DNA of 64,000 nucleotides, from positions 72,047 through 136,046 of the IMG/VR virus record IMGVR_UViG_3300021431_000082; one strand, given 5' to 3'. The notes below the pieces were generated by a model. That model was not told the origin of the DNA. It saw only the letters and a program-made list of their open reading frames with translations, and did not search any database. Shown here piece after piece: positions 34,702-62,318 of this stretch. The position numbers and the translations under genes were made by a program. This DNA is from a virus (lineage: Duplodnaviria; Heunggongvirae; Uroviricota; Caudoviricetes). Numbering within the stretch: position 1 is the first letter of the stretch; each line of letters opens with the position of its first letter.

Positions 34702-36210
34702 TTGGCTAGAAGAACTGTGGCTGCGGCTTCATCGCCGGGAACTGAATTAAGGTAGGTAGCTGAACTTCGAGAGTGGTTTAAGAAAACGGTAGAGTCAATG
34801 GGATCACTGAGGCTGATTGATCTCTCAAAGAACACAACTCGCCGCTACGGAAAGATCACTATCGAAAAGCTCCGCCAGTATTTTCAGAACCCATATCGGT
34901 ATCAGACCGAACTGATTAAAGCCGCTCAATACTTTTATCGGACGAACGCTGTGTTCCAGGCTTTAGTCCAGTACTTTGCTACTATGTTTGTGCCTGATGC
35001 AAGGAGCGTCATTCCACGTTATAACCTTGCCAAGCGTACAGCTGGTGCTGACAGTAAGGTAATCAAAGCTTACTATCAGACGCTTGATGAAATCGAAAAG
35101 CTTGATCTTCTTGCTAACTTTACCAAGATGCTGGTTGACGCATGGACTTGCGATGTAGCGTATGGCGTCCTGTATCGTGATGATACTGGTGCTTTTATAC
35201 TTCCACTTGATCCAGAGTATTGCCGTATCTCCGGTATGAACCCGGACGGTACATTTACTTTCGCCTATAACATGGATTACTTCCTCGGCAGCAACGAGTA
35301 TCTGCTCGACTACTTGGGCGAACCGTTCGTCTCCATGTATCGTGATCGTGGAGATTCAAAGTGGGTGAATGTCCCAAGTAATGTCGGGGTTGTTATCAAG
35401 ATCAACACAAACGACCCGCTTCTCATTATGCCTCCGTTTGCCGGATTGTTCTCAAGTTTAATTCAGCTGTCAAACCTTGAGGACATCCAGGATACAAAGG
35501 ATGCGCTAAGTGCATATAAGATTCTGGTTGCTAAGGTTCCACTTCTTGATTCCAAACTCCCAGATGATTTTGCCGTTGACATTGATACCGCTGAGAAATA
35601 CTGCAAGAAGATTGAGCAGAACCTGATGGAGCAGATTGGATTTGTCATGTCTCCCGGTCTTGATCTGGATGTTCTCGATGTTATGGAAGATGGCACTTCG
35701 GAAGTTAACCGCATCAATCAGGCGCAGAGCAATATCTTTGACAAAGAAGGAGTTCCGCTTCTCGACGCTAAGAACATTACAAGCTCTACCGCATGGAAGC
35801 TTATATCTATCTATAACACGAGACGAGCACTCTCCACTACTCTTCCGCAAATTCAGGCATTTGTGAACCGCTGGCTCCAGGACAAGATTGGACCTAACGC
35901 GGCGAAAGTGGTTTTCCACCTCACCTCTCCATACCTTCTCGACACCTTCCGTGAGCAGATTAAAGATTCTGCTACTCTTGGTATGCCTGTGAAGTTACTT
36001 CTCAATCAGCTTAATGGCGTGAGCGAGATCGACACTCTCAGGATGAACAAGCTTGAGATCGAAGAACTTGGACTGCATAAGGCGTTTATTCCACTCTCCA
36101 CTTCTTATACACAAAGTACTGATGCTGCCGATCCGATTGAAGGTGGAGCGCCAACTAAGATCGAGGTTACCGATAAAGGCGAAGAAAGTCGAGACGGTAA
36201 AGAGCAATGA
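34702..36210 (+). CDS. Portal protein (502 aa; TAG at 34753)
   Basis: TTG start after AAGGAGG; position after TerL; PLDPEYCRI and PLSTSYTQS motifs. Confidence 0.85.
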
Positions 36211-36383
36211 AGCAGTTATTTATTAAGACAAGAGACAAAGGAACGGCTGACAAGCTGAAAGAACTCGGCTTTAAAGTCATTAGCGAGTCTGGCGGAATGT
36301 GGACGTTTCTGAACGACTCCACGATTCGTTTTGACGCTGATGGTAATAAGAAAGCCGTGTACAGCGATAGGATCGAAATCTAA
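36207..36383 (+). CDS. Small conserved head-region protein (58 aa)
   Basis: MKQLFIKTRDKGTADKL...; overlaps both neighbours. Confidence 0.7.
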   Translation: MKQLFIKTRDKGTADKLKELGFKVISESGGMWTFLNDSTIRFDADGNKKAVYSDRIEI

Positions 36384-53000: not shown

Positions 53001-56000
53001 AGAAGCTTTCAAATGGGAGTGAAGACAGCATTAAGGAAGCCCTCCGGCAATATATAGAAGATAATGGTGGACGGGATTTAAAGAACTTCACTGGTGTTGG
53101 CACAAAGAATGGAGTATCAAATTTTACCGCAGAATTTACCGGTGCTGATGGCGCAATCAAGAAATTAAATGCCTCTTTAAACACTACAGATAATACACTG
53201 CGTGGTGTTGTTAAGTCTGGAAGGAGTACTGGATAGTTCTTTAGCGAACTTGTTGATACAATCTCTAATAAGTGGAGATCATTTATTGGTTATCTGTCTA
53301 CGCAGGTAACTGTTATGCAACTCTGGGGGATCTTAAAACAAGGTATTGCAGTAGTTAAAGAACTTGATTCTGCATTTGTAGAATTAAAACGTATTTCAAA
53401 TGATTCCGCTTCTGCCCTTGAGGACTTTAGAAAGAGATAGTTCGAACTTGCCGATACTGTTGGCACTACATCTGCAACGATTATAAATGCTGCCACGGAG
53501 TGGGAACACCTTGGCTATAGCATTAAGGAAGCTGAGGAGCTTGCAAAGACGTCAGCTATCTACAAAAATATCGCTGATGGTATGACTAGTGACTCTGAGG
53601 CAACCGAAGATCTCGTCAGTATTCTTAAGGCATACAACTTCGAGGCTAACCAAGCAATGGATGTTACCGATGCTCTTATTGCGACATCCAATAACTATGC
53701 GGTAACCGCTGCTGATATCGGTAATATTCTTAAGCGCTCTTCTGCTGCTCTTGCTATGGGTGGTAACTCATTCGAGGAAACCGTAGCTCTTGGTACGGCG
53801 ATGAACGAAGTGCTTCAGTCGGCAGAAGTCGCCGGCTCAAGTTTGAAAGTTCTTTCTCTCCGTCTCCGTTCAAGTAAGACCGAGCTTGCAGAAATGGGTG
53901 AAGAGACCGACAATCTTGTTGAGTCTACGCCAAAGCTTAGGACGCAGATCAAGGCTCTAACAAAAGGTTTTGATATCCTTGGTTCTGATGGTAAAACGAT
54001 AAAGAGCACGTATGAAATAATGAAAGGTATTGCGGCAGTCTGGAAGGATATGTCAGACGTAGATCAAGCCGCACTCCTTGAACTTATAGCCGGTAAGACT
54101 CGTGCACAAGGCGTGTCAGCACTTTTGAGTAACTGGTCCCAGGTTGACGAGGTCCTTAAAACCATTGCCGAAGACGAAGGTACCGCTCTTAGGAATAATG
54201 AGGCGAAGCTAAATACAATACAAGGTAGGCTTACAAAACTTACAAACGCAAGTCAGAAACTCGCATCTGATGCGCTAAATACCGAACTGATTAAAGATTT
54301 TATTAGTGGCGTAACTGGAGCGGTAAACGCTTTAGACACACTCATTCAAAAGATCGGTATCCTTCCAACTGCTGCTGGAGCAATCGGTCTCGGTACAACA
54401 TTTACAAAAGGCGGAGGTCAGCTCAATCAGAGCTCATATCCTAAATGGATGAAATCCTACAAGGCCCCCGGCATAGTGCGTGGTAACACGAAACAAGTTC
54501 ATGCGTTCTAAAGATTTATGCTATAAGAAACAGACCTAGCGGGTACTAGGTCTGCTCACAGGGATCATCCAAGTACAAAGTACTTAAGAAGATCATAAAT
54601 AACACAGGCGATAATACCGCACACGATATTAAACGCCGCAGACTATAGAAGCTATCTCAATAGCATTTACCTCCTTCCAAGCAACGCTTATCAGTTACAG
54701 GAGGCATTATAGCATAAATCTTCAGAGCACATGAGCGAGGCTATGCGTAGTTAACCCGACGAAACTAGCGGACTGATCATCCGCTCTATCAATAGCAAAT
54801 TGATTTAAGACTGGGACATGCAAAGCATTTACATGCGGAGCATTATCAGCAGCGAAGCCATCTTATGATGGAACGTCCAGAGACTATAATGTCGGTGTGG
54901 AGCCGCTTGAATTGCGAACTTCATAAAGGGATAGTCCAAAGAATGTGTAACACACATGATCCAGGTATCGGAACCTGCAAACAAATCCGAGTTTGTTTGT
55001 AATCAACATTCATGCGGATTTATGTTGATTATCTTTAGCAAGATATGCAAATATTTTATTGCGTATATTGTCACACAGGATAAGTCGTAGAACACGGCTA
55101 AGTTAAATTCTATGAAAAGATATAGAGAACTCAAACAAGGGCACGAGAACTAATCTCCTGCCATATTATTATCCGAGTATTTGGCCGCTTTCAAACCGAG
55201 TATTTGTCAGAACTTGCTTCCGCAGTTATTACACTTATACGTCTTCCCTACATCTCCCATTCCAAAGATACCGAATATCCCTATCTTCGCAGCTTTCCCA
55301 ACGGTGGAGAGCTTTTTTAAATCCGTAGAACCGCAGATGGGACAATGGGGAATGTGGGTGGGTTGAGGCTGTGTAAGTTTTTTAACTCGTTCTTCAGCAT
55401 CATCCCATTCTTTTTTATTTTTTGCATCTGCTATTGCTTTAAGTTGTTTAAAGTACTCTGTTTCACCATCGTGTATAATATGTTCTTCGATATATTTATC
55501 TTTTTCGTCTTTTGGAAGTTTAAACCATGCGACAGTATCGTATTCAAATATATCCCATACATGATGACACACAGGGCAATGATCTGATTTTGCGAAAGCT
55601 TTTAACGCCATACTACCGCACCTTTTACAAAAGACTAATTTTGCTTCATCCATTATAAACCTCCTTATATGTATGGTTCTTTGATATTGTATCATGTTTT
55701 TGCTTGTAGGTGGCATTCTCAACGCTTATAAGAACCGTAATCCAAAGGGTGGTACTACTAATCTGTTTTAGACAGATATGTTTTCCGATGATCAAAAATC
55801 TAGCATACAGTTCATGAAAGACAATGATCTGTTAACGAAGGAAAACATAGATCATTTGACCGAGTTTAACAGTGCTCAAAAGGAAGTTCTTGAACTGATG
55901 GGCAAAAAAGACATCGGTATGGAAGAAGCCATCAAAGAACTTGGTGAGTCTGCTCAAGAGTCTGGTGGATTACTCCAACTCTTTAAAGAAAAAGGTGTTG

Positions 56001-59000: not shown

Positions 59001-61453
59001 ATAAGAAAAAGATCGAAGAAGCCTTTAAGGAAGACGGTCGTGGCGAAAAGTATATCCAGGATATCATGTATGGTAATCTCGATCCCGAAGAATGGGAGCG
59101 GATGATCACATATGATTCCAATAACCAAGCCGAAAAGGATAAGGTCGAACTGCTTGAGCGTGGTCAGACAGCCTATGACCATCAGAAAGAATCACTGAAG
59201 TCCATGCGTGAATGGCAGACGAAGCTTAACGAGGATGTTCAGAAAGAATATGAAATGCGTCTGAACATTGTCAAGGCTGAGATGGTCGCCATTGAATCCC
59301 GTATGAACGAAGCTCAGCATGATCTTGATATGAAGGAAATCCTTGGTGAGGTCGTGCAGGAAGCTGATTATCAGCGGTTGATTGGAATCTCTCAAGAGCA
59401 GGTCTCTAACTACGAGAAACAGCTGAGCGTTCTTAAGGAGCAGCTTGGTACTCTCGATGAAGGTGAGCAAGCCTGGTATGACTGCAAGTCTCAGATCGCT
59501 GACTGTGAACAGAGCATCCGGGATTGTGTAAAACAACAGGCCGAATGGAATGATACCATTCTGAGAATGCCGGTTGAGAACATCTCCCGCTTCCTCGGTT
59601 TAATCCAGAATCTCGGACAAACTCTTGAGAACTGGTTATCCGTAAATGATGCCAAGGGTATTGCCCAGACTGCCGAGCAGATCATGACATCATGGACCAC
59701 AGCTTATGATCAGATTGCTGATGATGAACTCGGATTAATGAAGCAGCTGGAAGATTACCAGGATTTGCTCGAAAATTATGATCTCGGATAGAACAAATTT
59801 TCTGAGGTAAGTGACGAGATTCAGAGTGCTCGTGATTCTGTTGAGTCTCTGGTCGAAAAGATGATCGAGTTGAATAAGCAACTGCTTACTCTTCCGATTG
59901 ATAAGATCGCTGAGATGACCACATATCTTGATGGTACTCTCTCCGACCTACAGACGGTTCAGTCCGAGCATGAGACGGCGATCAACACCGTTATCGAACT
60001 GATTACCAAAGAGCAAGAAAAGCTTGAAGACGAATATACCAAACTTGAAGAGTCAATACAAAAGCAGATCGAACCACTACAAGATCAGCTGGATACATTG
60101 CAGAAAGCAAATGATGCCCGTGATCGTGAATTGGCAGTCGAACAGGCTTTATACGAACTGGAAAAAGCTCGTGAGCAAAAGACAGTCCAGGTCATCCGTA
60201 ATGGTCGTGTCGAATACGCAGCCGATGAATCGGCAATCAGGGACGCCCAACAAGGTTATGATGATGCGGTTTACAATAAGCTTACCGGAGAACTCCAAGA
60301 TAAGATCGACGAACTGAACGACTCTCTTGAGAAATCTCGTAAGTCAACCGACGATCAGGTTAAAGCTCTCGAAGACCTCAAGAAGGAAAGATGGGAAACC
60401 ATCATGCCAGATACTGAGCGTAATCGTAACGAAGAGATAACCTCTCAGTTCTTTAAGGATATGTTTGGAGTTACTAACTGGAAAGAACTGGTGCTCGCCG
60501 GCAAGGACGCAAACGGTAACTACGCAGATGAAGCTATCTATCAGGGAACTCGTGCTAGTTACGAACAGAACTCTGTACAGATGCGTGATACCCAGCGTCA
60601 AATCGATGCTAACAATCTGATCACAGATTAGCTGACCAGACTCGTTGAAGATTTCCAGGCTGACCGGATTACGTCAGAGCAACTCTTCGCTAAAGTGTCC
60701 ACGCTTATGAGCTTTGTCAAAGATGGAATCATTACCGGACAAGAGCGGCTTGAGAACACTCTCTCACTCGGTGATTACTCCACTCTCGGTGCTGCATTAA
60801 AGGGAGCCGTAGAACAACGTGGAAGCCAGATCGAACTGTTCGGAGAAAACCTTAAGGTTGCGACTGATAACCGGAATAAGGTCAATGCTCTCATTGGAAA
60901 ATGGGATAACTTTAAAGTTTGGTACGATACAACATACAAACAGCTTTATGAACAATATAGGAAGATTGACTTCATCGGCGACTATGTGAAGAATATCTCC
61001 GACCATATTGATGATGACGATGATGAAAGGGGACCAGGGACTGTTTTTGAAAGTTCATCACGAGACCCTGAAGATTATCGTGGAGACGCCAGTTATAATG
61101 ATGTTGGACATTATTCTGATGGCCTTGAAAAAGGAGCTATTGGAAGTTTAACTCCATCTGATCGGTTCAAAGCCATCCAAGCACTCGGTCTTCGCAAACT
61201 CGATCCCGATGAATTCCCCGCCATTCTCCATCTCGGTGAAGGAGTCATCAATCCTCGTCAGCAATCCACCATGCTCGATAACATGCGTCAGGCTCTTGCT
61301 CTTGGAGGATCAGGAACCGGAGCTGTCATCCAGATGTCCTTCGGAGATATTAGTCTTCCATCTGTAACCAATGGTCAAGACTTTGCGGAATCTCTGGCTG
61401 TGCAATTCCAGCCGGCGATGAACCAGGTCTTCTCAAAGATCTTCAGGCGTTGA
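50042..61453 (+). CDS. Tape measure protein (about 3,375 aa after splicing; 30 in-frame TAG; one intron)
   Basis: One reading frame throughout. TMP core ELDSAFVELKRIS...LGYSIKEAEELA...ATEDLVSILKAY...AVGNV-type helices; Gly/Ser linker at about 58395-58445; C-terminal EFPAILHLGEGVIN. Confidence 0.85.
54419..55702 (+). ncRNA. Group I intron in tape measure gene (boundaries are a prediction)
   Basis: Q-like ATCAGCAGCGAAG near 54845; R-like CCAGAGACTA 54877-54886; S-like AAGGGATAGTCC near 54926-54937; P7 GACTA/TAGTC; P3 CCGAC (54756)/GTCGG (54891); P8 TGTGGAG/CTTCATA; TAA at 54509 otherwise closes the frame. Confidence 0.75.
55207..55653 (-). CDS. Zinc-ribbon membrane-associated protein inside the intron
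   Basis: AAGGAGG RBS before MDEAK; four CxxC pairs; HCPICGSTDLKKLS...IGIFGIFG...YKCNNCG. Confidence 0.8.
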   Translation of the reverse strand: MDEAKLVFCKRCGSMALKAFAKSDHCPVCHHVWDIFEYDTVAWFKLPKDEKDKYIEEHIIHDGETEYFKQLKAIADAKNKKEWDDAEERVKKLTQPQPTHIPHCPICGSTDLKKLSTVGKAAKIGIFGIFGMGDVGKTYKCNNCGSKF

Positions 61454-61478
61454 CAATCTTCCACTGTCACACTATAAT
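61450..61478 (+). promoter_or_regulatory. Consensus sigma70 promoter for putative antitoxin sRNA
   Basis: TTGACA-17 nt-TATAAT. Confidence 0.85.
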
Positions 61479-61484
61479 ATAAAT

Positions 61485-61585
61485 GAAAAAGGTGTCACCG
61501 TGAAGCAAGCGGTTAGCCCTAGTCACAAAGTTTCATTCCTAAAGAATGACCGCTCAGTTTTGCAGGCCGAGGCGGTCATTTTTGT
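61485..61585 (+). ncRNA. Putative type I antitoxin sRNA
   Basis: About 100 nt between the consensus promoter and the terminator AATGACCGC...GCGGTCATTTTT; convergent with toxin ORF. Confidence 0.6.
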
Positions 61586-61656
61586 ATGGTCTCAATAACC
61601 TCTTTCAAGGCTACGAGGATAAGCAGTACGAACATAAGTTCACACACTTCAATCAT
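61576..61656 (-). CDS. Type I toxin-like hydrophobic peptide 1 (MIEVCELMFVLLILVALKEVIETIQK)
   Basis: GAAAGGAG RBS; own promoter TTGCCA-17-TATAAT at 61759-61731; single TM segment. Confidence 0.7.
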   Translation of the reverse strand: MIEVCELMFVLLILVALKEVIETIQK

Positions 61657-61892
61657 ACGCAGCTCCTTTCTGGCCTCCGAAGAGTCCTAATCAGAGCTAA
61701 CCGCCTACCGTTTTGGTGACACCCTTTGACATTATAGCTGATGCTTTTCGCATTGGCAACCTCTGCCGCACATATCGGGCGGCCAGTCCTGGGCAAGACG
61801 GTAAACTACCCAATCAAACCTACCACACCCCGGCAATAACTTCCTATATTGCAAGAGACAAAGGAACGGCGTCAACACAGAACTAACGTGAA

Positions 61893-61973
61893 TTAATCTT
61901 TTAAGTAATCGAGAACAGATACAAGTAGCTGTAACTACATAAGTATCACGCCAAGAAAAGCATAATCGATCAT
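61893..61973 (-). CDS. Type I toxin-like hydrophobic peptide 2 with in-frame TAG (MIDYAFLGVILM*LQLLVSVLDYLKD)
   Basis: AAAGGAGGTG RBS; TAG at 61935-61937; TAA stop; TGGTATAAT promoter near 62032-62040. Confidence 0.68.
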
Positions 61974-62111
61974 ACACATCACCTCCTTTAAAACATACAA
62001 GGAGAGCTCTGGTGGTGTGGTAGGTCTTTATATTATACCACCTGTCCTTTATTGGATGGGTGGTCTTTTATTGCTAACAAATGTTTATTTGTTGGTTAGG
62101 AGAAAAAGGAA

Positions 62112-62318
62112 TTGATTAAATGTAACGAATGCGAATACGGAGACAATTGTCCGTGTGGCTACAGCTATTGTAATGCGGCCTGTCTGACAATTCAAAAGCT
62201 GAAGCGACACACATGTGGAAAATGCTATTGGTACTCCGATGTCGGCGTTGAATGCTGTGAACATGAACACGATCCTACCACCTATGATTCACCGGCATGT
62301 AAATATTTCGAGGAATAA
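62112..62318 (+). CDS. Small Cys-rich protein
   Basis: 68 aa, multiple CxxC; TTG start. Confidence 0.6.
   Translation: MIKCNECEYGDNCPCGYSYCNAACLTIQKLKRHTCGKCYWYSDVGVECCEHEHDPTTYDSPACKYFEE

Follow-up and report, generated by a model that had tools for sequence, protein, structure and literature searches.

In phages that have recoded a stop codon, the recoded stops are concentrated in late genes, and it has been proposed from genome statistics that they delay lysis or late genes until the code switch (10.1101/2021.08.26.457843). For other TAG-recoded phages, reading of TAG as Gln has been reported (10.1101/2021.08.26.457843). In par-type toxin mRNAs, the 5' end and SD are sequestered by intramolecular pairing (PMC7472228). 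The bsrG/SR4 module of SPbeta has a convergent type I layout with a shared terminator, as does cassette A discussed below (PMC4147584). The general idea that recoded stops delay membrane-active late proteins is already published; its application to type I toxin-like cassettes was not found in the literature searched, and a full-text search combining type I toxin-antitoxin systems with amber suppression returned no relevant paper.

The window analyzed here is a stretch of 64,000 nucleotides from a virus record of 151.9 kb. A small cassette (cassette B) lies between its tail genes, on the strand opposite to them, and adjoins a second one (cassette A). The open reading frame of cassette B (ORF B) most likely represents a real gene for a small protein. 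Our preferred reading, to which we give a probability of roughly 0.55, is that B is a genuine and conserved TAG-interrupted toxin-like gene, the full product of which needs the Ser-type suppressor tRNA of the phage, and that it is part of a mobile type I-like array.

This reading depends on TAG being a sense codon, a premise of the sequence-only reading that holds: the late genes are rich in in-frame TAG and the genome encodes a tRNA(CUA). When TAG is read through, the pieces of the tape-measure gene fuse into frames of 1489 codons (18 TAG) and 1919 codons (12 TAG), and TAG is a sense codon in most of the large late-gene frames of this phage. The tRNA with anticodon CUA is part of a tRNA array in the genome:

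G000:C1:51797-51883, minus strand: tRNA(CUA), 87 nt, outside the window

The variable arm of this tRNA is long, its discriminator base is G and its D-arm closely resembles that of the phage's own tRNA-Ser(UGA). These three traits are serine identity features. In an alignment of the tape-measure C-terminus from twelve related phages, TAG columns are most often opposite Ser codons (four columns almost purely Ser, one mixed Ser/Thr, one Ala and two Gln). Because the tRNA(CUA) looks to be of the Ser type and the TAG columns are mostly Ser, this phage group probably reads TAG as Ser and not as Gln. The genome also contains three tyrosine-recombinase genes (Phage_integrase family; G000:C1:18351-20435 and 68848-69357), so a temperate lifestyle is plausible.

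Comparison with relatives, which were found via homologues of the flanking proteins, identifies the 580 nt between the tape-measure stop (61453) and a terminator hairpin as accessory DNA. The hairpin and the content of this interval are as follows:

62037..62064, plus strand: terminator hairpin of the tape-measure operon (terminator scan), directly 3' of the tape-measure stop in L011, L013 and L022
L011, L013 and L022: nothing between the tape-measure stop and the terminator
L012, L017-L021, L023 and L024: no cassette, the match to the window being the tape-measure end only
L010: cassette A only, with its junction at about 61818 / 62037
Window: cassettes A and B
L006, L009 and L014: cassettes A and B and a third cassette, C, of 290 nt

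Cassettes are gained or lost as blocks of 220-360 nt. The C-terminus of the tape-measure protein is 93% identical to that of the window in L009 and 68% in L014. As the array is 94% identical in L014 despite this 68% protein identity, the cassettes evidently move between phages. Five independent metagenome contig ends fall within or just beside the array (window 61940-62100; L004, L005, L007, L009 and L010), which is what presence or absence of cassettes at the population level would do to assemblies. A profile scan of metagenomes found six related loci (L019-L024), all without cassettes, and a profile scan of viral contigs found distant loci only. No relatives turned up when viral contigs were scanned with single proteins, namely the C-terminus of the tape-measure protein and the Cys-rich protein downstream, and neither blastn of the locus nor tblastn of the tape-measure C-terminus gave a match among 50,697 phage records.

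Cassette B is a compact expression unit spanning 62040 to 61818 on the minus strand. The sequence-only reading described it as a 26-codon hydrophobic ORF with TAG at codon 13, a strong RBS and an extended -10 box, and all of these are present. Its elements, in the order of transcription, are as follows:

62040-62032, minus strand: extended -10 box TGGTATAAT, with a predicted transcript start at about 62025
62014..62025, minus strand: 5' arm of an inverted repeat (mRNA sequence ACCTACCACACC), opening the predicted B transcript
62006-61999, minus strand: anti-SD stretch CTCTCCTT in the leader, paired with the SD in the predicted fold (window and L009)
61989-61981, minus strand: RBS AAAGGAGGT, with GGAGG 8 nt 5' of the ATG
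61973..61893, minus strand: ORF B, 26 codons plus TAA, read as MIDYAFLGVILM-(TAG, probably Ser)-LQLLVSVLDYLKD
61973-61971, minus strand: start codon ATG, followed by 12 sense codons (MIDYAFLGVILM)
61937-61935, minus strand: in-frame TAG, codon 13, seen in the window, L006, L009 and L014
61895-61893, minus strand: stop codon TAA, preceded by the post-TAG half of 13 sense codons (LQLLVSVLDYLKD)
61818..61829, minus strand: 3' arm of that inverted repeat (mRNA sequence GGTGTGGTAGGT), 64 nt past the stop codon and also the left boundary of cassette B

The B promoter is absent from the list of a simple sigma-70 scan because it has no good -35 element. The -10 box is kept in L009, L014 and L004. The RBS is invariant across five copies except for A to G at the third base in L014 and L004. 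The L006 copy has a degraded -10 box (TGGAAAAAT), an 8-nt deletion in the leader and a 14-nt insertion in the 3' UTR; relatives with the 8-nt deletion still have the CTCC of the anti-SD stretch. On the plus strand, a 32-codon hydrophobic ORF with a GTG start (62017-62115; AAGGAG 12 nt upstream) overlaps both the tape-measure terminator hairpin and the B promoter. It is probably a chance frame.

With TAG read, peptide B has an 18-residue hydrophobic stretch (residues 4-21) between D3 and D22, whereas the 12-residue stub is too short to span a membrane. Judged by its sequence, B would be a small (<60 aa) hydrophobic membrane-spanning toxin only if the TAG is read through. Peptide B has no match in Pfam, PHROGs or PDB. 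Its best library match is the TisB profile (NCBIfam NF011340; E-value: 0.018, 15.1 bits), far under the curated 53-bit cut-off, and B is accordingly not placed in this family. BLASTP of B against TisB translated from E. coli K-12 gives 11/20 identities, with LQLL..VL.YLK in common. Shuffle tests of this similarity give p-values of 0.0004 (entire peptide) and 0.0006 (post-TAG half). The TisB-like part of B (the post-TAG half, aligned with the C-terminal half of TisB) exists only after read-through. The pairwise similarity is real but short, and is treated here as a resemblance in design and not as family membership; convergence is as likely as common descent.

The TAG is not private to the window, since each of the other three complete copies (L006, L009 and L014) has it too. 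Among the copies found, none has a sense codon at position 13. Searches with degenerate back-translated patterns gave 0 matches for peptide B in viral contigs and genome contigs and 0 matches for peptide A in genome contigs. ORF B is identical in the window, L006 and L009. The L014 copy has three changes, at codon 14 (TTA to CTG) and codon 15 (CAG to CAA), all of which are synonymous and lie just past the TAG. Taken together, ORFs A and B (162 nt) have 0, 0 and 4 changes in L006, L009 and L014, respectively, with 4/4 synonymous; the surrounding 427 nt of non-coding DNA have 44, 9 and 34 changes (2-10% of columns).

Synonymous-only change past the TAG is the most direct sign of ribosomes reading on. 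Codons 14-15 allow six transitions, of which exactly three are synonymous, and these are the three observed; by our calculation, the chance of this is about 1 in 20. Since the other copies are identical, the coding signal comes from three substitutions in one divergent copy (p of about 0.05 if transitions only are considered). Several points count against it. There are only four complete copies, three of them ORF-identical, and an open frame of 13 codons past a TAG is not unlikely by chance. In addition, a small GUAG/CUAC hairpin has all three substituted sites in its loop, which makes constraint on the RNA another possible explanation. In this small sample, the TAG is kept in 4/4 copies and the frame downstream of it appears to be under coding constraint, as would be expected of a recoded gene.

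The leader motif CCTACCACACC (62024-62014), said in the sequence-only reading to recur inverted at 61819-61829, is part of a perfect 12-nt repeat with 100% complementarity; by our estimate, a stretch of 750 nt would contain about 0.02 such pairs by chance. In all four variants, the minimum-energy fold pairs the 5' arm with 61829-61818. The first 13-16 nt of the predicted mRNA are paired to the 3' arm and the SD is paired as well, and both features persist despite the 8-nt leader deletion and 14-nt 3' UTR insertion found among the variants. For the window, the fold has a z-score of -3.0 (mononucleotide shuffles). On this predicted fold, the B mRNA would be kept inert by sequestration of its SD and 5' end, as in type I systems. 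The copies of B show no compensatory change or covariation in the repeat: L014 has one A-U pair changed to G.U and one terminal pair lost.

The repeat had been taken to allow either 5'-3' pairing within the mRNA or an antisense RNA. The first is present in the predicted fold of the four variants. For the second, promoter and terminator scans of the plus strand opposite B found neither element for a B-specific antisense RNA. The best -10-like hexamer there (TATATT, 61845-61850) was seen by eye, is listed by no tool and is altered in L006. The small RNA of cassette C shows marginal pairing with the B start region (p about 0.05), and cassette C is absent from the window. A genome-wide search for a complement of the B start region gave nothing convincing, and a permissive Rfam scan of 61300-62300 found no relevant family. 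In the 3' UTR of B, 19 nt (61855-61873) match exactly the antisense strand of a late ORF (36229-36247; E-value: 1e-4 within the genome), so the B transcript could pair with that late mRNA. This ORF has 58 codons (36207-36383) and is translationally coupled to its neighbours. The 19-nt segment differs in L006.

The neighbouring cassette A is as it had been described, with an ORF, a near-consensus promoter, a convergent promoter on the plus strand and a common terminator:

61731..61759, minus strand: promoter of toxin A, TTGCCA-17-TATAAT, 11/12 matches
61656..61576, minus strand: ORF A (MIEVCELMFVLLILVALKEVIETIQK), 26 codons, hydrophobic, without TAG
61542..61583, both strands: bidirectional terminator common to the toxin A mRNA and the antisense RNA (scan, inverted repeat I7 and folds)
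61450..61478, plus strand: promoter of the convergent small RNA of A, TTGACA-17-TATAAT, 12/12 matches

In sequence, cassette A resembles the classical type I modules of Gram-positive bacteria. ORF A is identical in L006, L009 and L010 and has one synonymous change in L014. The terminator scan found no minus-strand terminator belonging to cassette B itself; B therefore probably reads into cassette A and ends at the terminator of A. ORF A is thus probably co-transcribed downstream of B, and the terminator at 61542..61583 probably ends a B-A transcript as well as that of A. The small RNA of A would overlap such a read-through transcript at the common terminator. Outside the terminator overlap, its pairing with the mRNAs of A and B is no better than that of shuffled RNA. 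Direct DNA alignment gives no support for paralogy of A and B: in register, their DNA is about 42% identical (hand count), MAFFT left the two ORFs out of register, and the likeness is one of design. A shifted 18-nt repeat (D2) linking A and B is probably due to chance.

Two further cassettes have a similar design:

L009:5636-5926, L014:5621-5912 and L006:986-1278: cassette C, absent from the window
54666..54565, minus strand: cassette D, in a tape-measure intron, 33 codons with TAG at codons 5 and 8

In L006, L007, L009 and L014, toxin C starts with GTG-TAG, five bases past a GGAGG box. Under the host code this is a start-stop pair; with read-through, the frame encodes a 29-residue hydrophobic peptide. 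The promoters of cassette C are convergent and of the extended -10 type, its terminator is bidirectional (L006, L009 and L014), and its small RNA pairs with the toxin leader and start region (-40.7 kcal/mol, versus -22.4 +/- 3.6 kcal/mol for shuffled RNA). In L014, cassette C differs by one synonymous and two non-synonymous changes, which counts against the preferred reading. Between L006 and L009, the terminator hairpin of C shows a hairpin-loop inversion: its top in the one is exactly the reverse complement of its top in the other. Cassette D has an extended -10 box, a strong RBS and a terminator, and shows a weak match to phrog_34536 (PHROGs; E-value: 2.3e-4). The D toxin promoter AGATTTATGCTATAAT has an inverted copy, AGATTTATGCTATAAG, just past the D terminator (window 54480-54760), suggesting that D, like cassette A, has a convergent antisense promoter. 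Peptides A, B, C and D have no Pfam match even at E <= 10; they contain neither proline nor a PXXXG(C) motif and so do not fit the Fst/Ldr profile. One more hydrophobic ORF, of 37 codons and also with its TAG at codon 13 (genome 55522-55635), has neither promoter nor terminator and was dropped.

The four tiny ORFs contain 4 TAG in 114 codons, about 8x the late-gene density of 0.42% (P = 0.0015). Set against roughly 1.7% per triplet in random non-coding DNA (our estimate), their density of 3.5% was judged no higher than expected; enrichment alone therefore proves little. The early positions of the TAGs (codons 2, 5, 8 and 13) fit a gate that would leave only harmless stubs.

The same locus can be read in other ways. 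Cassette B may be a decaying orphan in which the TAG is a nonsense mutation that disarmed a toxin without an antitoxin, the remnant travelling with the adjoining cassette A. The absence of an antisense promoter and a terminator of its own would be explained in this way, as would the damaged -10 box, leader deletion and 3' UTR insertion of L006; L010, with A and without B, indicates that B is dispensable, and the near-identity of the copies may stem from recent spread and not from selection. Yet a codon that is sense in most large late frames would not be disabling once the suppressor tRNA is made, and a remnant would not be expected to have only 0-3 changes in 81 nt, all synonymous, beside non-coding DNA that differs in 2-10% of columns. 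The post-TAG half is also still TisB-like, and cassettes C and D combine early TAGs with intact expression signals. Decay is a somewhat unlikely account of cassette B.

Alternatively, the unit may be a non-coding RNA or a small mobile cassette in which the ORF is incidental. As the left repeat arm is at the cassette boundary seen in L010, the repeat might mark the cassette ends (61818 and 62025) instead of forming a clamp; its lack of compensatory change and the gain and loss of cassettes in blocks agree with this, and the 19-nt match to the late-gene antisense strand hints at a role at the RNA level. An incidental frame, though, would hardly have a strong RBS at ideal spacing from its ATG, hydrophobicity throughout, the 26-codon length of ORF A, a TisB-like sequence and, counted together with ORF A, four changes that are all synonymous. 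No Rfam family matches the region either, and we find this account improbable. Finally, translation could simply end at the TAG, as it would on host ribosomes, with the 12-codon frame serving as a short upstream ORF that tunes toxin A on a B-A transcript; the lack of a terminator between B and A makes co-transcription possible. This leaves 13 post-TAG codons that are open, hydrophobic, TisB-like and synonymously constrained without an explanation, and L010, which lacks B, has a complete and conserved cassette A. Such a role for the stub is very improbable.

Under the preferred reading of B as a TAG-interrupted toxin-like gene, expression might proceed as follows. A leftward B mRNA would be made from the host-type extended -10 promoter. 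As the predicted fold suggests, and as type I toxin mRNAs do elsewhere, this mRNA would have its 5' end clamped to a 3' segment and its SD paired. A ribosome using the host code would halt at UAG13 and release the 12-residue stub. With the phage serine-type tRNA(CUA) present, the full 26-residue hydrophobic TisB-like peptide would be made, and this peptide may insert into the membrane and depolarize it. Transcription would read from B into A, making use of the terminator and antisense RNA of A.

A bolder extension is that cassettes B, C and D are toxins that sense a change of the genetic code, being transcribed from host-type promoters, silent while UAG is a stop and firing when a UAG-decoding tRNA appears. 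We regard this as doubtful and put it forward as a speculation. If true, the toxins would be silent in, for example, a lysogen and would fire at the phage's own induction, aiding shutdown or lysis; they could also fire on entry of another TAG-recoded phage, causing exclusion by abortive infection. This would amount to a toxin-antitoxin-like switch with the codon itself as the lock. The proposed lock is found in the smallest possible targets, membrane-toxin-like genes of 26-33 codons with type I regulatory RNA features, and early TAGs are found in three of this lineage's four cassettes. A single peptide, a single codon and a single tRNA would together form a compact system for testing whether recoding gates toxic proteins, and the same system could show whether such cassettes sense the suppressor tRNA. 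With this locus, type I-like cassettes join the accessory cargo of recoded phages, and the code that it suggests is TAG-to-Ser, as opposed to the reported TAG-to-Gln.

Compared with described systems, this phage resembles the recoded phages of Borges et al. (10.1101/2021.08.26.457843) in having in-frame recoded stops in late genes and a phage-encoded suppressor tRNA, and it shares with their proposal the idea of membrane-active or lysis proteins that cannot be made before the code changes. It differs in that the putatively gated genes are type I toxin-like ORFs of 26-33 codons with host-type promoters, antisense to the late operon. Some of these cassettes have antisense RNAs of their own, and the suppressor looks serine-type and not glutamine-type.

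Among type I systems, par (Fst, RNA I/RNA II) of Gram-positive plasmids and mobile elements (PMC7472228) is like cassette B in its small hydrophobic toxin and sequestered 5' end and SD, the latter being predicted for B. It is like cassette C in its convergent promoters, bidirectional terminator and two pairing regions that derive from direct repeats and cover the start site. In contrast to par, no convergent RNA, terminator of its own or direct repeats DRa/DRb were found for B, which thus departs from the Fst/Ldr layout; ORF B also needs stop-codon read-through, and the PXXXG(C) motif is absent from A-D. The bsrG/SR4 module shows that type I cassettes occur on a large temperate phage, SPbeta, and the 3' overlap of its toxin mRNA and antisense RNA is as in cassette A. 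No sequence similarity to it was detected, the cassettes described here are in the tail-gene region between the tape-measure stop and the terminator, and three of the four toxins carry in-frame TAG. TisB, a 29-residue membrane-depolarizing type I toxin of E. coli (NF011340; PMC4147584), resembles B in length, design and the C-terminal LQLL..VL.YLK. The tisB/istR-1 locus differs in being divergent and LexA-controlled, and its host group is probably different from that of this phage.
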